Positions 6,134-23,135 of a DNA stretch of 24,852 bases are shown piece by piece. Position 1 is the first letter of the stretch; each line of letters begins with the position of its first letter. A program made the position numbers and the translations under genes. Under the pieces are notes generated by a model. That model was not told the DNA's origin and did not search any database. It was given only the letters and a program-made list of their open reading frames with translations. This stretch comes from a virus (lineage: Duplodnaviria > Caudoviricetes): positions 1 to 24,852 of the IMG/VR virus record IMGVR_UViG_3300042252_000041. One strand, given 5' to 3'.

Positions 6134-7956
6134 TGCCCCGCGTCCCTACCGCCAGCGAGGCCGGGCTCGGCCAGCAGACGCCCCAGGCGCTCACGATCCC
6201 GCAGCAGACCAGCCGGCTGCCGCACGTTCGGGTGCCGATGGACGAGTCGTTCCGCTACGTCAGCGGCGAGCAGGGCAGGGCGCTCGAGCGCATGGGCCGC
6301 CAGCTGGATCGCGCCGGCGACGACTTCGGCCGCATCGCAATCGAGCAGCAGCGCGAGTACAACCTGACCGCGGCGAAGGAGGCCGACGCCGCCGCCTCCG
6401 ACCGGATCCGCGCGCTGCTCTACGACCCCACGGAGGGCTTTCTCAACCTACGCGGCCGCGACGCCATGGATCGGGCGCCCGACATCCGCGAGCGGCTGGA
6501 AGCTGTGCGCAAGGACGTCGCTGGGAAGCTGGAGCCCGGCGCCGCCGAGATCTTCGAGCGCTATTGGGAGAACCGGCGCGAGAGCGGCCTCCTGCGGATC
6601 GACAACCACCACGCCAGCGAGATGCGGCGCTGGAAGGACACGGTCAACGAGTCGCTGCTGAAGTCGGCGCTCGACGACGCCGTGGCGGCCGCCGGCGACC
6701 CGGAGATGGTCGGCCAGGCCGAGGGCGCCATCCGCGCCACCGTCGAGGACGTGGGCCGGGACAACGGCTGGACGCAGGACATCGTGGTCCAGCGCACGAA
6801 GGAGGCGCTGACCGAGATGCACAAGGGGGTGGTGACCACCCTGCTCAACGAGAAGCAATACGGCCGGGCGGCGGCGCATCTGCGCGAGGCGATCGCCGAC
6901 GACGAGATCTCCGCGGTCGTGGCGTCGAGCCTCAAGGACAAGATGGAGACGGCGCGCAAGGTGGCGGCCGAAGAGAGCCGGGCGGCGCGCGTGCAGTCGC
7001 AGGTCGACGCCTGGACGGGTGAGGGGCTGTCGACTGCGGAGATGCTGGAGCGCTCGCGGCGCCTGCCGCAGAAGGACCGCGACGAGGCGCGCAAGCGGAT
7101 CCGCTGGGCGGCGCAGGAGCGGGAGATCGCGGAGGAGGAGACGCACGAGGCGGCGCGCGACCGGGCGACGGACATCATCGACGGTGGCGGCCGGCCAGAG
7201 GATATCCCCTTCAGCGACTGGACGGCGCTCACGACCGCCGAGCAGGCGACGCTCGAATCGCGCTGGCGGCGTCGGGTGACCGGCACCGAGCCGGTGACCG
7301 ATGAAGAGCACTTCCAGGAGCTCCTCATCGAGGCGCAGACCGATCCCGAGGCCTTCGCCAAGCGCGACCTGCTCGCCATGCGCGAGAAGCTCGACAACGG
7401 CGACTTCGAGACGGTGCGCAAGCTGCATGCGGCGACCAAGGCAGCGGCCAAGGGCGACCCGGCGCCGGCCGACTTCTCGGTCCTCTCCCAGAAGGAGTCG
7501 ATCAAGATGATGCTCGAGGCGGCCGACATCGAGACGAATCCGAAGCCGGGGTCGGACGAGGCGAAGGCGCTGGCCGAGTTCCACCGGACGCTCGGCCAGC
7601 GGGCCCGCGCCTTCGAGGTGCAGAACGATCGCGAGCCGAATCAGGCCGAGGTCGAGGAGATGGCGCGCGCGCTGCTCTCCGACGTCGCGATCCGCGGCAG
7701 CGAGGGATCGTTCCTGGGCCTCAAGCTCACCGGCCCCGACCGGGCGCGCGTCTACGAGGTGCCGCGCGGCGAGCCGACCTTCGTGCCGGCAGACGAGATC
7801 CCGCCCGGCGACAAAGCCTTGCTGCTGGAAGACGGCCGGGTGCGCGGCAAGAGCCTGACGCCTGGCGACCTCGAGGATCTCTACGCCGCCTACCTCGCCG
7901 GCGACCGCGCCCGCTACGAGGCCATCCTCGAGACGGCGGGCGCTGCCGATGAGTGA
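6133..7956 (+). CDS. Middle internal virion/ejection protein (gp15-like position), 607 aa
   Basis: TAATG coupling with the upstream gene; MPRVP start; helical, charged composition; synteny. Confidence 0.75.
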   Translation: MPRVPTASEAGLGQQTPQALTIPQQTSRLPHVRVPMDESFRYVSGEQGRALERMGRQLDRAGDDFGRIAIEQQREYNLTAAKEADAAASDRIRALLYDPTEGFLNLRGRDAMDRAPDIRERLEAVRKDVAGKLEPGAAEIFERYWENRRESGLLRIDNHHASEMRRWKDTVNESLLKSALDDAVAAAGDPEMVGQAEGAIRATVEDVGRDNGWTQDIVVQRTKEALTEMHKGVVTTLLNEKQYGRAAAHLREAIADDEISAVVASSLKDKMETARKVAAEESRAARVQSQVDAWTGEGLSTAEMLERSRRLPQKDRDEARKRIRWAAQEREIAEEETHEAARDRATDIIDGGGRPEDIPFSDWTALTTAEQATLESRWRRRVTGTEPVTDEEHFQELLIEAQTDPEAFAKRDLLAMREKLDNGDFETVRKLHAATKAAAKGDPAPADFSVLSQKESIKMMLEAADIETNPKPGSDEAKALAEFHRTLGQRARAFEVQNDREPNQAEVEEMARALLSDVAIRGSEGSFLGLKLTGPDRARVYEVPRGEPTFVPADEIPPGDKALLLEDGRVRGKSLTPGDLEDLYAAYLAGDRARYEAILETAGAADE

Positions 7957-10900
7957 TCTTGCGAACTGGCTGCAGCAGGGCGACCCGGGCGCGCCGGCGG
8001 ACCTGACGCCCTCGGAGCCGGTCGACAGCCCCCTTGGGCAGTGGCTCCAGCGCAGCCAGTCCAGCGACGTCGAGCGCGCCCGCTGGCAGGCGCTGATGAA
8101 CCTCCAGGGCCAGGCTCACCGCAAGCCCGACGACATGGCCGAGGCGAGCCTCCTGTCGGGCGCGATCGGCGTGCCGCCGAAGATCATCGAGAAGGACCTC
8201 GACGCGGCCCGGGCGAAGGCGCGCAACGACCAGATCCGCAAGCTGGTCGACGAGGGCTTGGCCACGCCGCGGTTCCTGGCCGACCCCGACAACGCCGCGG
8301 CCGCCCAGGACGAGGTCGAGAACCTCGTCTTCCACGAGCGCGCGTGGAAGAGCCTGCGCGGCGCCATGGCCGAGCTTCCCGAGGCCTTCGAGCGCGGCCG
8401 CAAGACGACCGAGATGGGCGTCATCGGCAACCGCATGGCCACGACGGGGCTCTCGGAGGCCGAGCGGCAGCGCCTCGACCAGCTGCGCGAGTCGCTGGCG
8501 GCCGTGCCGGAGGGCGAGGGGTTCCTGACGGCGGCGGCCGAGCTCGCCGGCAATATGTACGACAACCTGCTCTCGGCGCTGCAGGTGGGCGTGGGCGCCG
8601 GCACGACGGCCGCGACCGGCGCGGCGATCGCCGGCCAGGCCGGGCCGCAGATCGCGACGCCCGAGGAGCTCATCACCGTTCCCGGGGCCTTCGTCACCGG
8701 GCTGACTGCCGGCACCGCCGCCGAGCTCGCGCGGCGCTCCTTCATCGTCGAGCAGGGCCACAGCTACGTAGAGATGTACTACGCCGCCAAGGAAGCGGGC
8801 GTGGAGTTCGACCCGCAGACGGCGGCGATGCTGTCGGCCGGCGTCGGCCTGGCCAATGCCGGCCTCGAGATGGTCGGCGTTGCCACGGTCGCGCGGCCCT
8901 TCAAGCAGGCGCTCAACCGCGCCTTCAGCCGGGACGTGCTCGCCCAGGCGCTGAAGCGCCAGACCCGCGCCGGTGCCGCGCGCGCCTTCGCCGGCAACTA
9001 CGCCCTCGGCGTCGGCGGCGAGACGGCGACGGAGATGCTGCAGGAGATCGCGCCGGCCGTCGCACAGTCGCTCTACGACTACTACCAGAGCGGCGACTGG
9101 CAGGGCCTCGACACCGACCAGCTGGCCCAGAACATGGCCGAGATCGGGCTGAAGACGGCGCAGGGCATGGCCGTGCTTGCCGTGCCGGGCCCGACGACTC
9201 GGCTGGTGGGCGACCTCAGCCGGGCCAGCCAGTCGCGGCTGCAGGAAGAGGCGATGCGCCAGCTGCAGCAGGGGGCGGTCGACAGCAAGCTGCTGCAGCG
9301 GCTCCCGGATCGCTACCGCGCCTTCGTCAAGGCGATGGGCGAGGAGGGCGGCATCGACGCGGTGTCGATCGAGGCCGAGGCCTTCGAGTCCTATTGGCAG
9401 AGCCAGGTGCCCAACGAGGCCGAGCGGCTGGCGATCTACGACGCCCTCGGCGTGCGCGGCCAGGTCGAGGCGGCGCGCCAGACGGGCGAGGACGTCCAGA
9501 TCCCGATCGAGCTCTGGCAAAGCCGGATCGCGCCGACCGACCACTTCGAGGCGCTTCTGCAGGATGCGCGCCTGCGCCCCGGCGCCTTCACGCCGCGCGA
9601 GGCCCGCGAGTGGGTCGCGAACGGCCAGGACACCGCCTTGCGCACGGCCATCGCCCAGGCCCAAGCGGACGTCGACGCGGGCGTGACGGAGATCGAGGCC
9701 TCGGCGCCGGGCAGGGTCTTCGCCGGCGTCGAGCGCTCCCTGACGGCCACCGGCATGGATCCCGAGGCCGCGCGGAAGAGCGCCACGATCCATCTCGGCT
9801 TCGCGCGCGTGCTCGAGCAGGAGTACGGCATCGACCCCGAGGCCTTCCACGCGCAGGAGATGGGGCTGCGGGTCGTCAGCGGCACTCCGGCGGCGCCGAC
9901 CGCGACCCGCGTGGCCAAGCCTGCGTCGCAGCGCGGCCCGCTCGACGCCGCCCGGTTCCTCGCCGGCCGGGGCGGGATCCGCGACGACCAGGGCCACGAC
10001 CTTCGCCGCGGCCGAAACCTGCAGAAGCTGACGCCCGAGGGGCCGCTGATCCGTCAGACCGGACTGTCGATCGACGAGGCGGGCGAGGCGCTGTGGGAGG
10101 CGGGCTTCTTCGGCCCGCTGGAGACGACGCTGCGGCCCGACGAGTCGCAGGTGCTCGAGCTGCTGGAGCGCACGGCCGAGGGCCGGGTGTTCACGCCGGA
10201 AGAGGCGGACGCGGCTGCGGCCGACCTCGCTGCCGCATCGAACGCCGATCAGGAGGCGACCCTGCGCGAGGGCATCGCCGCGACGGCGCGCGACATGGGC
10301 TTCGAGTTCGCCGAGGCGGACGTCGACGCGGCACTGCGCGCCATGGCCGAAGATGGCCTGGAGATCGACGATGCGGTAGACTTGCAGATCGAGCGCTTGG
10401 CCATGCAGACGCTCGACGACCTCGAAAGCGAGACCGGCGACAATGCCTACGACATCCCGTTTGACGACCCAGCTGAATCGGCCGAAGGCGATCGAGCTGC
10501 TGGAGCGCGGCGCGACGGACGAGAGGGCCAGCCCGGAGACGCGGGCGAAGGCGAAGCTGGCGGCCGACCTGCTGAAGGCCTCGGAGGCGCGGAGGGGCCA
10601 GACGGCCTAACCTTCGAGCAGGCGCCGGCGCGGCCGCGCTCTCACGAGGCGCGCAGGCAGGGCATCCCGCCGGCGGCCGACCCGCCACTTCAGTCGTTCC
10701 GGAACACGACTCCGCTGAAGGCGCACCCCGACTACGCCGCGGCCAAGGCCGGCGACCGCGCTGCTGCGGTGCGGCTGGTCACCGACCTGGTGCCGCAGAA
10801 GACGCTCGACGAGGCGGCCGAGCGGTTCGGGCCCGGCGCGATCTTCGCTGCGGCGCACGCCGAGGAGGCGAGCGGAAGAAACGCCATCCCCACCACGCTG

Positions 10901-13900
10901 GCCGACCTTCTCGCGGCCGCGACGGACGGCCGGGCCGACGACGGGATCGTGCAGGCCAACCGGGCATTCCATACCGGCGCCAAGGCGATGGAGCGCATGA
11001 TGGCCCGGCCGCTGTTCGACGGGCCGGTCGAGCCTGGTGGGCGCTATGTGCTGGTCGATGACGTCACCACGATGGGCGGCACGCTCGCCGAGATGGCGAA
11101 CCACATCATCGACGGCGGCGGCCAGGTGGTGGGCGTCGTCACCCTTGCCAACGCCAGCCGAACGCCTACATTGGGAGCTTCGGCGCAGCGCGTGCGCGAG
11201 ATCGAGCGGAGGTACGGCGATGCAGTCCGAGAAGTCTTCGGCACCGAACCTGCCGCGCTCACAGCAGCCGAAGCCCAATACGTCCTCGGCTTCCGAGATG
11301 CTGACTCCCTCCGAGCTCGAGCAGCTAAGGCGCGACAAGAGAGAGACGAGCGCCTACGCGCGCGAGGCGTTCTCCCATCTGCGCCGGAAGAAGGCCAGCT
11401 AGGCGAGGGCGACCCGCCGACCTTCTTTCAGCCGGCCTGGCACGGCAGCCCGCACATATTCGACCGGTTCAGCCTGGACGCCATCGGCACTGGCGAGGGT
11501 GCGCAGGTCTACGGCTGGGGGCTCTATTTCGCAGGCAAGCGCGAGGTCGCCGAGTTTTATCGGGACGCTCTTGCGCGCGGGCCGGCTTGGCGGACGGCGG
11601 CTGGCGAGGAACTCGACCTTTACGACTTGGCCAGGGAAGCCGAGGCCGGCAGCCCGGAGGCTTTGGCCGCTTCCTTCCTGAAGCAGCGCACCTCAGTCGA
11701 CAACGCCCTATGGACGGCCCGCCATAGCCATCCAGACGAGTTCATCGGCGGCGAGCAGGAGAAGCAGGCGACGATTGCGGGCCTTGAGGAGTTCAAGCGA
11801 CGCGGCTTGAAAAAGGGCAGGCAGTCGCGGCTCTACAAGGTCGAGATCCCTGAGGACGACACCTTCCTGCTCTGGGATAGGCCGTTTCGCGAGCAGCCGG
11901 AGAAGGTGAGGGCCGCGCTGGAGCGTCTTGACGTCGACCTTTTCAGGCGATGGCAAGAGAACGGGGCTTGGCCGCATATCGCCGGGCGGGACCTCTATTC
12001 TGCGGCAGCCGGCCCGCGGGGCATGGAGATGCGGAACGCGGAAGGTCAGAAAGCCGCGTCTCTCGCGTTGCGTGATGCCGGCATCAACGGGATCAAGTAC
12101 CTCGATCAGGGCAGCCGCGCCACCGGCGATGGCACCTACAACTACGTCATCTTCGACGACAAGCTGGTTGAGATCGTCGAATTCGAGCAGCGGCGCGGCG
12201 CCGGCGGACCCCGCGGCTCCGTCTCCTTCGGTCAGGATCAGACGATCATCCGGCTGCTGCCGGGCGCCGACCTTTCGACCTTCCTGCACGAGTCCGGCCA
12301 CTTCTTCCTCGAGGCGCTCAAGCGCGTCGCCGAGCGGCCGACCGCCTCGCAGCGGGCCGTAGACGACTACCGGGCCATCGGCGCCTGGTATCGCGACCGG
12401 GCGGGCGCCGTCGCCACCGAGGCGGCGCGCAGCGGGCCCTACCGCGTCGTGCCGCAGGCCGGGGGCTTCGAGGTGCGCTACGGCGCCCGGGTCGGGGGCA
12501 CCTACCAGAAGAAGGCCGAGGCCGACGCCGCGGCGAAGGCAGCAAACGAGAACGTGGCCGGCCGCCTCGATGCCATGGGCGAGGCCGGGGTGATCGAGTT
12601 CCTCGACACCGGCACCACCGGGCAGCCCGACGCCGACATGGCGATCTCGACCGCGCTGCACGAGCAGTTCGCCCGCGGCTTCGAGGCCTACCTGATGGAA
12701 GGCCGGGCGCCGAGCCCCGACATGCGCTCCGTCTTCCAGGCCTTCCGCGCCTGGCTGGTGCAGATCTACCGGAACCTGCGCGGGCTCGACGTCGAGATCG
12801 ACGACCGCATGCGCCGCGTCTTCGACCGGCTGCTGGCCACCGACGAGCAGATCGCGCTCGCCGAGCAGCAGAACATCTACGCGCCGCTGCTCGACAGCGC
12901 CGAGGCGGCCGGCCTGTCGCGCGAGGACTTCGAGCAGTACCTGCGCGCGGCCGAGGCGGCGACGCGCGTCGCCGAGGACGAGCTCCTCAACGACGCCATG
13001 CGCGAGGTCGCGCGCGAGCGCACCGAGGAGTGGCGCGCGGCCCGCGACGAGATCACGGAGCAGGTCACCGAGGAGATCGACCGGAATCCTGCCTACCGGG
13101 CGCTGCGCTACCTGACCGAGGGGCGGCTGCCTGACGGCCGGGTAGAGCCGGAGCACCGGCGCCTCGACAAGGCCCAGCTGGTCGCCGAGTACGGCGAGGA
13201 GATCCTGCAGGAGCTCGGCCGCGGCTTCGGCCGGGCTTACCAGATCAGCGGCGGCATGCGCCTCGAGGAGGGCGCCGAGCTGCTCGGCTACCGGAGCGGC
13301 GACGCGCTGGTCGAGGCCCTGCGCGGGCTGCCGCCGCGGCGCCAGGCGATCGCCGACAAGGTGCGCGCCCGGCTCTCGGAGCGGTTCGGCGACATGATGA
13401 AGGACGGCTCGATCGTCCAGGCCGCGCAGGATGCCGTGCACAGCGACGCCCGCGGCCGATTCCTCGAGGTCGAGCTCCGCGCGATCAGCAAGCGCGGCGC
13501 GCCCGACATGGCGACGCCGGCCGAGGCCGCGCGCGCCTTCGCCGCCAGGACCATCGCCGAGCGCGAGGTCGGGAAGATCCAGCCCGACGCCATCCTGATG
13601 GCCGAGCGCAAGGCCGGTATGAAGGCCGAGCGCGCGCTGGCGGCCGGCATGTACGAGGAGGCGGCGCGCCAGAAGCGCGCGCAGCTGATCAACCACTACC
13701 TCTACATGGAAGCCCGCGACGCGGCCCGCGAAGTCGGCCAGGGCCGCGCCTACCTGCGCCGGGTCGCCAGCCGGAAGGGCGTGCGGGAGGCGATCGCCGG
13801 CGAGTACCTGGCGCAGATCGACGACCTGCTCGCCCGCTACGACTTGGCGGTCAGCACCACCGGCAAGGAGATTCGGGCCCGCCAGGATCTGCGCGCCTTC

Positions 13901-16174
13901 ATCGCCGAGAAGGAAGCCGCCGGCGAGGCCATCGTCGTCGACCCCAAGCTGGTCGAGGATGCCCGGCGCCGGAGCTACAAGGAGCTCTCGCTCGAGGAGT
14001 TCCGAGGCCTGCGCGACGCCGTGCGGAACCTGCAGCACATCGGCCGCAAGGAGCAGGAACTCCGGCTCGAGGAGGAGCGGCGGCAGCTGCAGGAGATCGC
14101 CGACGACCTCGTGATGCAGATCGGCCAGACGCACCGCGAGGTGCCGACCGGCCGTGTCTCCCGGGCCAGCGACCTGGCGCGGCGCACCCGCGGCCAAGTG
14201 GCCGGCGCGCTGCTCAACGCCGACACCATCCTGCGCGAGATGGACGGCTGGGAAGATCAGGGGCCGGTCTACCGGAACATCAAGGGCGTGATCGACAAGG
14301 CCTATTCCGAGCGGCTGGTGCCGCTGCAGGAGCGCATGGCCGACCAGCTGACCGCGCTCTTCGGCCGATTCAGCCGTGCCGAGGCGAAGAAGATGGCCAA
14401 GGCGCGCGCCCGCGACTGGCTCGACGGCGAGGAGCTCTCCCGCTGGGAGTTAATCGCCATCGCGCTCAACGCCGGCAACGACGGCAACCGGGAGGCGCTG
14501 GTCGAGTCCGGCAAGTTCACCGCCGAGCAGGTCGACCAGACGCTCGCCGAGCTCACCGCGCGCGAGCTCGAGTTCGTGCAGGCGACCTGGGACCTGGTCG
14601 AAGGCTACTGGCCGGAGATCGCCGCGCTCGAGGAGCGCCGCACCGGGGTCGCGCCGCCGAAGGTCGAGGCCACGCCGATCGAGGTGACCAGCAGCGACGG
14701 CCAGGTCGTCCAGATGCGCGGCGGCTACTACCCGCTGAAGTACGACGCGCAGCTGTCGGCCAAGGTCGACGAGGAGACGGTCGACGAGTTCATGCAGGGC
14801 ATCCGGGCCGGCCGGTTCGCCCGGGCGCAGACGCGGCACGGCCACACCATCGAGCGTGTCGGATCCGGCGGCCGGCCGGTGCGGCTCAATATGAGCGTGC
14901 TCACTCAGCACCTGCATCAGGTGGCCTACGACCTCGCCCTCGGCGAGGCGGTGACCTGGGCCGACAAGGTGCTGAAGCACAAGGACGTGAAGGAGGCCTT
15001 TCAGACGGTCGGTAAGCGCGAGGCCTGGAACATGCTCGACATCTGGCTGAAGGACGTCGCCACCGGCGAGGTGATCGCCGGCGACGTCGTCAGCCGGTCG
15101 CTGCGCTGGGTGCGCGTGGGCTTCACGATCAGCCGAATCGGCTGGAACCTCGGCACCGCCGTCATCCAGCCGACCGGCTTCCTGCAGACCTCGGTGCAGA
15201 TCGGCAAGCGCAATGCGCTCTACGGCCTGATGCAGCTGGCCAACGTCAGCCGCTGGTCGGGCCCGAACAGCATCTTCCGGCAGGTCTACGACCAGTCGGC
15301 CTTCATGCGCGAGCGCGGGACGACCTTCAACAAGGACATCTACGACACGATCCGGCAGATCGACCGCGTCGCCCTTGGCGGCCGCAACATCGTCGAGCGC
15401 CTGGCGGCGCCGGCCTGGGCGGTCAAGGGCGGCTTCTTCCTGATGGCCAAGACGCAGCAGATCGTCGACGTGGCGACCTGGCTGGGCGCCTACCGGCAGG
15501 GCAAGGCGAAGTTCGGGGCCGACGACCGGAAGGCCCTCGACCACGCCGACCGCATGGTGGCCCGCTCCCAGGCCTCCGGCCTGTTCTCCGACCGCACGGC
15601 GATCGAGCGCGGCACGCTCTCGACAAACCACCGCCAGGTCGAGGTGGTGCGCATGTTTACGGCCCTGGCGTCGTACATGATCGCCAAGAACAACGTCGCC
15701 TATGAGCGGATCAAGCGCACCAACCCGCGGAGCCCGGCGCAGGTGGCCGGGCTCACCATCGACCTGATGCTGCTCTACACGGTCGAGGCGCTGATCATCG
15801 GCCTGATCCGGGGCTACTTCCCCGACGAGGACGATGACGAGGGCGCCGCCGAGTGGCTCGCGAGGGAGTCGCTCTTCGCGATGATGGGCGGGATCCCGCT
15901 GGTGCGCGAGTTCGCGGCCGAGAGCCAGGGCTTCCGCGGCGGCGGCGCCTTCGCCTCCGCGCTCGACCTCTACGGCCGGGCGGCGGCGCAGGTCGATCAG
16001 GGAGAGTTTGACAAGGCGTTCTTCAAGGCCAATATCGACTTCGCGGGCGTGCTCCTTCACTACCCGTCGAGCCAGATCAATCGGACTTTCGATGCCTTCT
16101 GGCGCGACGTTGTGGAAAAGGATGACGTGGCGCTGATCGAATACTTGATGAAGGTAGACACGGAAGATGACTAG
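7949..16174 (+). CDS. Giant polyvalent internal virion/ejection protein, 2741 aa, with PRTase-like, ADP-ribosyltransferase-fold-like and zincin (HExxH) modules
   Basis: Uninterrupted ORF at the gp16-like position; VLVDDVTTMGGT PRPP loop (11048); WHGSPH.F..F...G.G....GWGLYF (11438); FLHESGHF (12281) plus HEQFARGFEAY (12659); hydrophobic helices near both ends. Confidence 0.88.
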   Translation: MSDLANWLQQGDPGAPADLTPSEPVDSPLGQWLQRSQSSDVERARWQALMNLQGQAHRKPDDMAEASLLSGAIGVPPKIIEKDLDAARAKARNDQIRKLVDEGLATPRFLADPDNAAAAQDEVENLVFHERAWKSLRGAMAELPEAFERGRKTTEMGVIGNRMATTGLSEAERQRLDQLRESLAAVPEGEGFLTAAAELAGNMYDNLLSALQVGVGAGTTAATGAAIAGQAGPQIATPEELITVPGAFVTGLTAGTAAELARRSFIVEQGHSYVEMYYAAKEAGVEFDPQTAAMLSAGVGLANAGLEMVGVATVARPFKQALNRAFSRDVLAQALKRQTRAGAARAFAGNYALGVGGETATEMLQEIAPAVAQSLYDYYQSGDWQGLDTDQLAQNMAEIGLKTAQGMAVLAVPGPTTRLVGDLSRASQSRLQEEAMRQLQQGAVDSKLLQRLPDRYRAFVKAMGEEGGIDAVSIEAEAFESYWQSQVPNEAERLAIYDALGVRGQVEAARQTGEDVQIPIELWQSRIAPTDHFEALLQDARLRPGAFTPREAREWVANGQDTALRTAIAQAQADVDAGVTEIEASAPGRVFAGVERSLTATGMDPEAARKSATIHLGFARVLEQEYGIDPEAFHAQEMGLRVVSGTPAAPTATRVAKPASQRGPLDAARFLAGRGGIRDDQGHDLRRGRNLQKLTPEGPLIRQTGLSIDEAGEALWEAGFFGPLETTLRPDESQVLELLERTAEGRVFTPEEADAAAADLAAASNADQEATLREGIAATARDMGFEFAEADVDAALRAMAEDGLEIDDAVDLQIERLAMQTLDDLESETGDNAYDIPFDDPAESAEGDRAAGARRDGREGQPGDAGEGEAGGRPAEGLGGAEGPDGLTFEQAPARPRSHEARRQGIPPAADPPLQSFRNTTPLKAHPDYAAAKAGDRAAAVRLVTDLVPQKTLDEAAERFGPGAIFAAAHAEEASGRNAIPTTLADLLAAATDGRADDGIVQANRAFHTGAKAMERMMARPLFDGPVEPGGRYVLVDDVTTMGGTLAEMANHIIDGGGQVVGVVTLANASRTPTLGASAQRVREIERRYGDAVREVFGTEPAALTAAEAQYVLGFRDADSLRARAAKARQERDERLRARGVLPSAPEEGQLGEGDPPTFFQPAWHGSPHIFDRFSLDAIGTGEGAQVYGWGLYFAGKREVAEFYRDALARGPAWRTAAGEELDLYDLAREAEAGSPEALAASFLKQRTSVDNALWTARHSHPDEFIGGEQEKQATIAGLEEFKRRGLKKGRQSRLYKVEIPEDDTFLLWDRPFREQPEKVRAALERLDVDLFRRWQENGAWPHIAGRDLYSAAAGPRGMEMRNAEGQKAASLALRDAGINGIKYLDQGSRATGDGTYNYVIFDDKLVEIVEFEQRRGAGGPRGSVSFGQDQTIIRLLPGADLSTFLHESGHFFLEALKRVAERPTASQRAVDDYRAIGAWYRDRAGAVATEAARSGPYRVVPQAGGFEVRYGARVGGTYQKKAEADAAAKAANENVAGRLDAMGEAGVIEFLDTGTTGQPDADMAISTALHEQFARGFEAYLMEGRAPSPDMRSVFQAFRAWLVQIYRNLRGLDVEIDDRMRRVFDRLLATDEQIALAEQQNIYAPLLDSAEAAGLSREDFEQYLRAAEAATRVAEDELLNDAMREVARERTEEWRAARDEITEQVTEEIDRNPAYRALRYLTEGRLPDGRVEPEHRRLDKAQLVAEYGEEILQELGRGFGRAYQISGGMRLEEGAELLGYRSGDALVEALRGLPPRRQAIADKVRARLSERFGDMMKDGSIVQAAQDAVHSDARGRFLEVELRAISKRGAPDMATPAEAARAFAARTIAEREVGKIQPDAILMAERKAGMKAERALAAGMYEEAARQKRAQLINHYLYMEARDAAREVGQGRAYLRRVASRKGVREAIAGEYLAQIDDLLARYDLAVSTTGKEIRARQDLRAFIAEKEAAGEAIVVDPKLVEDARRRSYKELSLEEFRGLRDAVRNLQHIGRKEQELRLEEERRQLQEIADDLVMQIGQTHREVPTGRVSRASDLARRTRGQVAGALLNADTILREMDGWEDQGPVYRNIKGVIDKAYSERLVPLQERMADQLTALFGRFSRAEAKKMAKARARDWLDGEELSRWELIAIALNAGNDGNREALVESGKFTAEQVDQTLAELTARELEFVQATWDLVEGYWPEIAALEERRTGVAPPKVEATPIEVTSSDGQVVQMRGGYYPLKYDAQLSAKVDEETVDEFMQGIRAGRFARAQTRHGHTIERVGSGGRPVRLNMSVLTQHLHQVAYDLALGEAVTWADKVLKHKDVKEAFQTVGKREAWNMLDIWLKDVATGEVIAGDVVSRSLRWVRVGFTISRIGWNLGTAVIQPTGFLQTSVQIGKRNALYGLMQLANVSRWSGPNSIFRQVYDQSAFMRERGTTFNKDIYDTIRQIDRVALGGRNIVERLAAPAWAVKGGFFLMAKTQQIVDVATWLGAYRQGKAKFGADDRKALDHADRMVARSQASGLFSDRTAIERGTLSTNHRQVEVVRMFTALASYMIAKNNVAYERIKRTNPRSPAQVAGLTIDLMLLYTVEALIIGLIRGYFPDEDDDEGAAEWLARESLFAMMGGIPLVREFAAESQGFRGGGAFASALDLYGRAAAQVDQGEFDKAFFKANIDFAGVLLHYPSSQINRTFDAFWRDVVEKDDVALIEYLMKVDTEDD
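10443..10610 (+). CDS. Candidate nested +1-frame small protein, 55 aa (MPTTSRLTTQLNRPKAIELLERG...KLAADLLKASEARRGQTA)
   Basis: ATG 10443 to TAA 10610; the +1 frame uses host-like G/C-ending codons while the main frame turns low-complexity with A/T-ending codons; RBS weak; alternative TTG start at 10461. Confidence 0.55.
   Translation: MPTTSRLTTQLNRPKAIELLERGATDERASPETRAKAKLAADLLKASEARRGQTA
11145..11172 (+). promoter_or_regulatory. Candidate intragenic sigma-70 promoter for the nested gene at 11220
   Basis: TTGCCA-N16-TACATT, built from codons atypical for this gene (CTT, CCT ACA TTG). Confidence 0.5.
11220..11402 (+). CDS. Candidate nested +1-frame small protein, 60 aa (MQSEK...MLTPSELEQLRRDKRETSAYAREAFSHLRRKKAS)
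   Basis: GGAGGT SD at 11208-11213, 6 nt before ATG; upstream promoter-like element; codon bias shifts to the +1 frame; amphipathic helical C-terminal half. Confidence 0.68.
   Translation: MQSEKSSAPNLPRSQQPKPNTSSASEMLTPSELEQLRRDKRETSAYAREAFSHLRRKKAS
16008..16035 (+). promoter_or_regulatory. Candidate intragenic sigma-70 promoter near the giant gene's 3' end
   Basis: Consensus TTGACA (16008-16013), N16, CAATAT, in a locally AT-enriched stretch. Confidence 0.4.
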
Positions 16175-21657: not shown

Positions 21658-22343
21658 TGGCCTTCATCGGGTCGGACACCTTCTCCCTCGCGACCAACGG
21701 CCTCACGATCGCCGGCGTCAACCTCGACAACGCGCTCGGCGGCAGCACGCCCGGCCCCTGGGCTCAGGACGTTTCGGGCCCCTGGATCAAGCAGGCGGCA
21801 GGCACCTACAGCGGCGACACCAGCGGCACCGTCGTCGGGACCAACGCGAACTCCAACGCCTATGCCGACTTCGGCGAGGCCGTCGTCGTGGCCACCATGC
21901 GGTTCCGGTTCGACGGCGGCACGGCGAATCTGGGGGTCATGCTCAACGCGCTGGACTATGACGACTGCGTGCTCTGCTTCTACGTGGCGAGCAACAACAC
22001 GCTGCGGATCCGGCAGCTGGTCGGCGGCGCCAGCACCGACCAGGACAGCGAGGCGCTCTCGGGGGCCCTGACGACGGGTGTCTGGTACAGGCTTGTGGCG
22101 AGCGTCGACGCGAGCGGCAACTACTCGGCCGAGATCACCGACGACAGCGGCGTCAGCCTGATGAACGTCGGGCCGGCGACCTGGCCGAGCGGCGCCGCGC
22201 CGACCCGCGAGAGTCACGGCTTCCGCAACTTCTCGACCACGGCGAACCGTAGCATCGTCGACTGGATCACGGTCGAGACCAACGATGGCGGCGGGGGCGG
22301 CGGCGGCGACCAGATCTACGGCGGCTGGTGGATCGAGGCCTAG
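21657..22343 (+). CDS. Beta-sandwich (lectin/ConA-like) virion protein, 228 aa
   Basis: TGATG coupling; all-beta pattern with G.WY.L.A.V motif; poly-Gly linker before a short C-terminal peptide. Confidence 0.6.
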   Translation: MAFIGSDTFSLATNGLTIAGVNLDNALGGSTPGPWAQDVSGPWIKQAAGTYSGDTSGTVVGTNANSNAYADFGEAVVVATMRFRFDGGTANLGVMLNALDYDDCVLCFYVASNNTLRIRQLVGGASTDQDSEALSGALTTGVWYRLVASVDASGNYSAEITDDSGVSLMNVGPATWPSGAAPTRESHGFRNFSTTANRSIVDWITVETNDGGGGGGGDQIYGGWWIEA

Positions 22344-22894
22344 GCCTCCCGGCGCCGGCGGATTCCGAGCAGCGCGGCCAGACCTGCCGCCAGCAGCGCC
22401 AGCGTCCCGGGCGTCGGGATCTCGGCCCACAGCTCGTGCGGCGGCCGGTCGGCGCGGTCACCGACGTAGAATCTCAGCAGATAATCCATCGGCGCGGTGA
22501 TCGACGTCTGACCGAAAAGGTAGCTCCCCTCGGGGATCTGCAGGTCGCTGAGCCACAGCGGACGCCAGTCGATCGGCACGTTGGGAAGGTTGGGGCGGCA
22601 GTGGATCGGCACGCCGGCGTCGGTGTAGGTGCAGAAGCCGGCCGCGCCCGGGCCGCCCTCCGGCGTCCAGATGATCGCCCAGAGGTAGCCGCCGCTCGGC
22701 ACCGTGAAGGCGAAGTTGTCGAAGTCGGAGCTCGAGAAGCTGCCGTGGATCCAGCTGGAGCCGAGGCCGAGGTTGAAGGTCTGGCCGTCGAGGTCACCGT
22801 CGACTGCCTCGTCGTGGATGACGATGGGAGCGGCCGCGGCCGGCGCGGCGAGCGCCAGGCCGGCGGCGAGGGTGATGGGGGCAAGGAATCGCAT
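22340..22894 (-). CDS. PEP-CTERM-type exosortase substrate (moron), 184 aa
   Basis: AGGAGGA RBS (22901-22907); signal peptide MRFLAPITLAAGLALAAPAAA; C-terminal IPTP-GTLALLAAGLAALLGI-RRRR (Pro motif, TM helix, Arg cluster). Confidence 0.85.
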   Translation of the reverse strand: MRFLAPITLAAGLALAAPAAAAPIVIHDEAVDGDLDGQTFNLGLGSSWIHGSFSSSDFDNFAFTVPSGGYLWAIIWTPEGGPGAAGFCTYTDAGVPIHCRPNLPNVPIDWRPLWLSDLQIPEGSYLFGQTSITAPMDYLLRFYVGDRADRPPHELWAEIPTPGTLALLAAGLAALLGIRRRREA

Positions 22895-22927
22895 CCCGAA
22901 TCCTCCTGTTGGTGGTGCCTTGCCAAC

Positions 22928-22944
22928 AGCAAGACACGGGCCAA
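22928..22944 (-). promoter_or_regulatory. Sigma-54 (-24/-12) promoter of the PEP-CTERM-type gene
   Basis: Minus strand TTGGCCCGTGTCTTGCT = TGG-N8-TTGC with exact GG-N10-GC spacing, 33 nt upstream of the ATG. Confidence 0.75.
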
Positions 22945-23135
22945 CCGCAGAGATCAGCCAACGGGCAGTCCTGCACGCCCGGATTGTGTAAGGCACGCTT
23001 GACGATTGCGGCGGCGGCGTGTCGCAAACGTTGACGTGCAGCCAACGACAAGTGGATTTTTCCCAAGGAAACGTTCACCGAAGCGGGAGCGTTGTGATTT
23101 AGTCCATGGAACAGAAGCCACGCGAGAGCAGAGGG

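Follow-up and report, generated by a model that had tools for sequence, protein, structure and literature searches.

Our analysis suggests that a short frame lying inside a giant phage virion gene, at positions 10443–10610 of the plus strand and in the +1 register, is very likely a real, separately translated gene of 55 codons that annotation has missed. Its codon usage sets it apart from the rest of the surrounding gene, and across relatives it is the +1 protein, not the main-frame linker, that is conserved directly behind a 178-aa protein module. Embedded genes and toxin-immunity cassettes are already known; here a hidden gene family is tied to an undescribed module.

Results

The carrier gene and its phage

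The window, by which we mean the whole stretch of 24,852 nucleotides analysed, is a linear virus record from bioreactor metagenomes, estimated to be 55% complete. Its carrier gene (7949–16174, plus strand, 8.2 kb) encodes 2741 amino acids, with an LPD22 domain at the N-terminus (E 3e-16), a PRTase-like domain at residues 903–1137 (10655–11359, plus strand; phrog_22413, with Pribosyltran below cut-off) and a match to phrog_9880 in the C-terminal part. The gene closes a podophage virion module in which its neighbours match Bbp16, tail proteins, the internal virion proteins phrog_308/418 and T7_gp14, and from this position and its domains we infer that it encodes a large ejection (internal virion) or polyvalent protein. 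Several mobile domains (LPD22, PRTase-like) are combined in this one phage polypeptide, as is characteristic of large polyvalent proteins. The closest named relative of the 178-aa module comes from Fodinicurvata sediminis (57%), and genomic loci with the module were found in Sphingomonas, Dongia, Stakelama and Sphingorhabdus, so the host is likely an alphaproteobacterium.

Further along the carrier, the segment 11435–12190, which begins with an HGSPH motif, presumably resembles the ADP-ribosyltransferase domains of polyvalent proteins. Its GC3 lies below that of the rest of the carrier, it had no match in Pfam or NCBIfam, and the per-frame codon score gave no nested-gene signal behind it. Opposite to the virion genes, the minus strand holds a PEP-CTERM-like gene at 22340–22996 (E 0.004, below cut-off).

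The +1 frame carries the coding signal

A preliminary description of this DNA had claimed that an apparently low-complexity linker of the carrier is the shadow of an overprinted 55-aa gene written in preferred codons, and had named a per-frame comparison of GC3 and codon adaptation as one check. Across the whole 8.2-kb gene, the per-frame codon score favours the +1 frame only in windows starting at 10409–10529 and at 11249–11309. From the ATG at 10443 to the TAA at 10610, the nested frame has a CAI of 0.62 and a GC3 of 0.93, compared with 0.25 and 0.58 for the main frame over the same bases. A CAI of at least 0.62 was reached by none of the 2461 other 55-codon +1 windows (mean 0.25, maximum 0.43) and by no synonymous redraw of the main-frame protein among 5000 (mean 0.45), so that the nested frame outdoes every window and redraw control and the claim of an overprinted gene in preferred codons is borne out. 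Openness of the +1 frame is no evidence by itself, since 4932 of the 5000 redraws also leave it open. Contigs of three runs span the ORF with zero differences or gaps, which excludes an assembly frameshift. The 55-aa product is predicted to form a two-helix hairpin (helices 13–25 and 31–54, pLDDT 79) with a net charge of +4, and the family shares the motif L...D.RLSPETR..A.R.

Start signals upstream of the nested gene

A promoter-like site, TGGCCT-17-TAGACT, had also been noted upstream (10354–10382, plus strand), its second hexamer arising from rare GTA and TTG codons. The site is present and the codons are indeed rare (GTA in 5 of 264 Val codons, TTG in 5 of 325 Leu codons); a promoter function is unsupported, because a consensus scanner did not call the site, the TAG at 10377 within TAGACT is the last +1-frame stop before the ATG, and -10-like hexamers are scattered in position, with TAnnnT occurring 10–110 nt upstream in 11 of the 29 loci and in 19% of background windows. 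The weak Shine-Dalgarno reported for the gene is found as GCGAGA (10428–10433, plus strand), about 10 nt before the ATG, and its pairing energy of -4.8 kcal/mol compares with a family median of -5.6. Family-wide, such pairing exceeds that of background +1 ATGs (median -5.6 vs -2.8, p 5e-7), a difference that is confounded by the acidic main frame.

These signals bear on the reading that the hairpin has no start of its own and that a programmed +1 frameshift yields a shorter carrier ending in it. The weak Shine-Dalgarno here would fit such a mechanism, as would the open stretch of 3 to 204 codons (median 26) that precedes the chosen ATG in the +1 frame of the 29 loci. We nevertheless consider it very unlikely, given that an ATG stands just behind the module in all 29 loci, that the median Shine-Dalgarno-like pairing is above background, that the last upstream +1 stop is only 3–8 codons away in five loci, and that a free-standing homologue has its own coupled start.

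A conserved small gene follows the module

We assembled DNA for 54 loci from three collections together with two earlier loci and the window, leaving 36 loci at under 90% module identity. Their carriers range from about 900 to over 2700 aa and differ in their downstream domains. A +1 ORF opening with an ATG right behind the module and encoding 44–90 aa (44–66 aa in 28 of them) was found in 29 of the 36 non-redundant loci; the loci are related, and these counts are not independent events. The suggested link with the upstream module therefore holds, and a small ORF placed directly behind a swappable cargo and specific to that cargo is the arrangement of a toxin-immunity cassette. ORFs were picked via codon score and, in L008 and L039, by eye, their starts likewise partly by eye; 22 of the 29 passed an automatic codon-score threshold.

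Modules are mostly 25–57% identical across loci, and the start and stop positions of the nested gene are kept. In a leave-one-out test, from which relatives over 50% identical were also removed and in which six frames were ranked, a +1 profile put the expected place at the top in 28 of 29 loci (median 17.3 bits), L015 being the exception, whereas a profile built from the main-frame linker across those bases succeeded in 7 of 29 (median -3.0 bits). Frame conservation thus lies with the +1 frame, and the flip in codon score together with this poorly conserved linker agrees with the proposal of a frame shadow. The +1 protein was more conserved than the main frame in nine of nine aligned pairs, the alignment having been made in the +1 frame. 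Main-frame third positions account for 164 of 512 differences in the overlap, as opposed to 304 of 562 in the module, and the +1 wobble position for 180 of 512, with no clear dominance; substitutions in the overlap are even over codon positions, so the main-frame wobble is lost and no clear +1 wobble has taken its place. Another 129 module proteins were represented without DNA, after 9 had been excluded as own or locus-encoded and others because their tails were short. In 79 of them the linker fitted the +1 profile with at least 20 bits, compared with 4 of 123 upstream controls and 12 of 387 shuffles.

That there is no second gene at all, and that the frame is the relic of an old frameshifted segment or an assembly error, is highly improbable on these data. 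Chance openness of the frame and the failure of L015 are what such a relic would predict, but the contigs of three runs agree, it is the +1 protein and not the main frame that is conserved, and start and stop positions are retained. The 55-aa ORF, which sits wholly inside ORF 7949–16174, combines a coding signal with protein-level conservation beyond the constraint of the host frame, as an embedded gene does.

A profile search of 5.8 billion proteins returned solely a 49-aa piece of the same gene, indicating that gene callers miss the family. When the 55-aa protein was used as a single query, no relatives appeared in viral contigs or the protein database; the family was reached via the upstream module. 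No Pfam family matched more than 1 of 28 members, the protein of the window had no PHROGs or NCBIfam match, ESM Atlas scores for the small protein were 0.81 or less, and fold searches starting from the hairpin yielded no informative match. Other strong +1 coding segments, not related to this family, were seen beside other carrier domains at L043:2246–2515 and L047:3929–4156.

Sequence and predicted fold of the module

The module (9938–10471), whose relatives form 291 clusters at 50% identity, is predicted with a pLDDT of 95 to consist of a compact N-domain followed by a long helix and a C-terminal bundle of three helices. The N-domain of about 90 aa (9938–10207, plus strand) contains a conserved G-G-x-R-D-D-E-G-H stretch as well as R39, D46, G49-E50 and R66-P67; conservation reaches 91% for H20, R39 and R66, 92% for E50 and 96% for D46, and these polar residues could form a putative binding or catalytic site. 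An R-x4-H motif recalls HEPN nucleases, an assignment that we rejected for the N-domain because the motif falls in a loop and no HEPN fold was matched. Scans of Pfam, PHROG, NCBIfam and PDB sequences gave no shared match for the module or the small protein; for the module, Foldseek found nothing in the PDB at E 0.001 or better and only other polyvalent proteins among viral models, and ESM Atlas had no usable match; no family or fold match from these searches pointed to a toxin or an enzyme.

The C-domain (10247–10435, plus strand), an acidic three-helix bundle by prediction, carries the upstream signals of the nested gene in its last helix. VIA-align detected a weak likeness of this bundle to UBA/CUE/EF-Ts-N and sigma-region-2 helices (Z at most 5.6). 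Alignments with UBA/CUE/EF-Ts N-terminal bundles reached Z 4.5–5.6 (1xb2_B: rmsd 1.7 over 44 residues), scores that lie within the range of common helical arrangements. The N-domain was barely probed by VIA-align, since all the matches span the C-terminal helices.

In other proteins (L002, L004, L005, L008, L040 and others), a segment that we take to be a winged-helix-like fold lies about 80 aa upstream of the module. It precedes the module in 63 of the 146 proteins, or 47 of 130 with the seed left aside, and is not present in this window. As a predictor of the nested gene it was discarded (39 of 55 with the segment vs 51 of 74 without).

The nested gene accompanies the acidic C-domain

At a score of 6 bits or more, the C-domain was recognised in 28 of the 29 loci that have the nested gene and in 2 of the 7 that lack it (Fisher p 3e-4, with the threshold set after the scores had been seen); the loci that keep it without the gene are L012 and L032. 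Among 401 Sphingomonadaceae genomes, the module occurs in 22, and 18 of its 23 places there hold the N-domain only, in frames of 1000–1900 aa, without C-bundle and without nested gene. These 18 loci apparently represent one clade and count as one event, and they indicate that the best-conserved portion of the module can do without the nested gene. DNA linkage by itself would also produce the co-occurrence with the C-domain, since the start signals are located within it. In a set of Sphingomonadaceae proteins, mostly of 1500–1900 aa (L063–L079, L081, L055), the N-domain is followed by a different conserved helical region. At around 2950–3010 of L033/L034, an in-frame deletion relative to L030 fuses the long helix of the module to a point midway along the linker; the C-bundle and the first half of the nested gene are lost, and the carrier remains open.

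When 351 Sphingomonas-group genomes were searched with only the small protein as query, ten new matches emerged, comprising three nested behind the module, one free-standing and broken by a stop, and six due to chance. The three nested loci are prophage-like and have the module directly upstream. Although the module has moved among very different carriers, the small gene was never nested behind another domain in the loci examined, and the domain that follows it varies from locus to locus.

Across all 29 loci, the C-part has a charge of -4 to -24 and the small protein one of 0 to +16, a positive charge that is partly expected for the +1 frame of GC-rich DNA. The opposite charges, together with the gene tracking the acidic C-domain and the carrier being a virion protein by context, could mean that the hairpin binds the module as a chaperone that keeps its acidic helices in solution, or as an aid to packaging the giant protein in the capsid, and does not block a harmful activity. 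This seems unlikely to us: free-standing copies would be left without a client in elements that have no module, and the C-domain persists in some loci from which the gene is missing.

The PRTase domain has its own nested gene

The downstream PRTase-like domain had been offered as another possible partner of the small protein. Adjacency in the window speaks for it, but the domain following the nested gene changes between loci, and the PRTase domain travels with a different nested gene in 7 of 7 relatives (four by pattern, three by eye; L058, L131–L137), a distinct +1 gene with an LT.SE motif. Co-occurrence thus largely refutes the pairing, to which we give almost no credence. In the window this other nested +1 gene lies at 11220–11402 (plus strand, start at 11220 or 11298), where it overlaps the PRTase end, carries the motif as LTPSE and is marked by the codon score, which turns to the +1 frame over 11249–11400; upstream of it is a sigma-70-like site, TTGCCA-16-TACATT (11145–11172, plus strand; one found, 0.1 expected).

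In Moraxella phage Mcat8 (L131) and in L136, the carrier stops inside the LT.SE small gene, giving the layout of a C-terminal domain followed by a small gene. The annotation of Mcat8 shows part of the small gene as a hypothetical gene that overlaps a 'coat protein' gene at its end, and this carrier is a putative MuF protein. The PRTase cassette is therefore both terminal and internal, which suggests how nesting arises.

Free-standing homologues

Non-nested homologues of the small gene were detected in two of 401 genomes, G070 (E 1.4e-6) and G098 (E 8.7e-6; per-genome E-values, profile built without them), and G580 is a third free-standing candidate. The homologues of G070 and G098 each belong to a small element that also has a tyrosine integrase and an HTH_17 gene, with no module nearby. 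The G098 gene (58 aa) overlaps the stop of a lipoprotein-like gene and the start of an adhesin-E-like gene, so that it is translationally coupled within an operon, and a NACHT gene is near. Most weak matches of the profile were set aside as chance hits in unrelated genes, namely seven of the nine inspected in the 401-genome search and three of four new ones from the further small-protein profile search.

An integrative element carrying a free-standing homologue also contains a 1337-aa NACHT-domain gene and a convergent 822-aa gene (L112:1791–8290), a region that looks like a defence island. At about 1450–1620 of L122 (minus strand), a free-standing homologue broken by a stop overlaps the end of another gene; judging from motifs, we take the overlapped gene to be ADP-ribosylglycohydrolase-like and the one that follows the homologue to be Xre-antitoxin-like.

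The free-standing copies support a real protein and fit orphan immunity or a carrier-independent function equally. Their location in integrase-bearing elements is consistent with orphan immunity genes. Equally, homologues without the module, among lipoprotein-like and NACHT-type cargo of integrative elements, are what would be expected of a real but independent accessory (moron-like) gene that sits in a tolerant linker and whose product acts on a host or rival-phage target with no contact to the carrier; linkage to the C-domain would then be explained by the start signals located there. We regard such independence as possible, if rather unlikely, in view of the absence of the gene behind any other domain in the loci examined, despite the mobility of the module, and of the dedicated nested gene of a second domain, the PRTase.

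Discussion

The reading that we favour, with a confidence that falls a little short of even, is that the module and the small gene form a cargo domain and its cognate inhibitor, a cassette of toxin-immunity type, and that the carrier reads through the small gene in another frame. The basic hairpin would likely bind and restrain the module, most likely via its acidic three-helix end. The complementary charges of the two parts, the co-occurrence of the gene with the C-domain and the separate nested gene of the PRTase speak for this reading; against it stand the fold searches, which gave no toxin- or enzyme-like match for the module, and the two loci that retain the C-domain but not the gene. Between carriers the cassette would move as a whole, the cargo domain together with its cognate small gene, in the arrangement known from polymorphic toxins and their immunity genes. 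The inhibitor would shield the cell that makes the carrier, whether lysogen or infected cell, during its synthesis, and possibly also against the same domain injected by related phages. With the cassette inside a long protein, the carrier would have to read the small gene in its other frame, which would give rise to the apparent low-complexity linker.

In Rz1/Rz, a small spanin gene is wholly embedded out of frame in a larger phage gene and its product is the partner of the larger one. Unlike that pair, the gene described here shows no lipoprotein or lysis features, and it lies in a virion gene of 8.2 kb that harbours two or more nested genes, each linked to a domain of its own. The literature titles and abstract openings that we searched, a coverage outside which most subscription journals fall, contained nothing on nested genes inside polyvalent or ejection proteins.

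Another parallel is offered by the MuF polymorphic toxins of temperate phages. According to passages of the two reports concerned, a small ORF follows 89.4% of the toxin genes (PMC5576092) and cognate immunity proteins act by binding (PMC12226406). As here, a virion-associated carrier bears swappable cargo followed by a small, family-less, domain-specific ORF. In contrast to MuF, the cargo is internal, the carrier is an ejection or polyvalent protein, and toxicity and immunity are putative; the internal position of the cargo means that the carrier encloses the whole small gene, which is read in the +1 frame. Polymorphic toxins hold their cargo at the carrier C-terminus, and since the module is internal in the window and in the DNA loci examined, we do not class it as a member of a polymorphic toxin-immunity cassette.

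The carrier, with LPD22 and a PRTase-like domain, is one of the large polyvalent proteins (Iyer et al. 2017, PMC5512222), and homologues of the module occur in proteins with other Pfam domains. The 178-aa module itself matches no Pfam family. The main text of that report contains no instance of 'overlap' and one of 'frame', which concerns separate ORFs; its supplementary table and alignments may name the module differently.

More tentatively, and with somewhat less confidence than in the cassette itself, we propose that low-complexity linkers of phage polyvalent and ejection proteins may often be the shadows of nested inhibitors, one per injected cargo domain. Cassettes would be shuffled in frame between carriers, and satellites would take up inhibitors as orphan defences; phages would inject the 178-aa module as a new effector, whose predicted fold found no counterpart in the PDB searches, and the 55-aa hairpin would serve as its antidote. 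Protein databases contain almost nothing of the small-gene family, even though its module is represented by 291 clusters at 50% identity. If nested genes mark domains that need restraint, they could be used to pick active effectors among the uncharacterised domains of polyvalent proteins, and they would also supply the antidote for cloning and assaying such effectors. The odd linkers of giant polyvalent and ejection proteins would then be explained.
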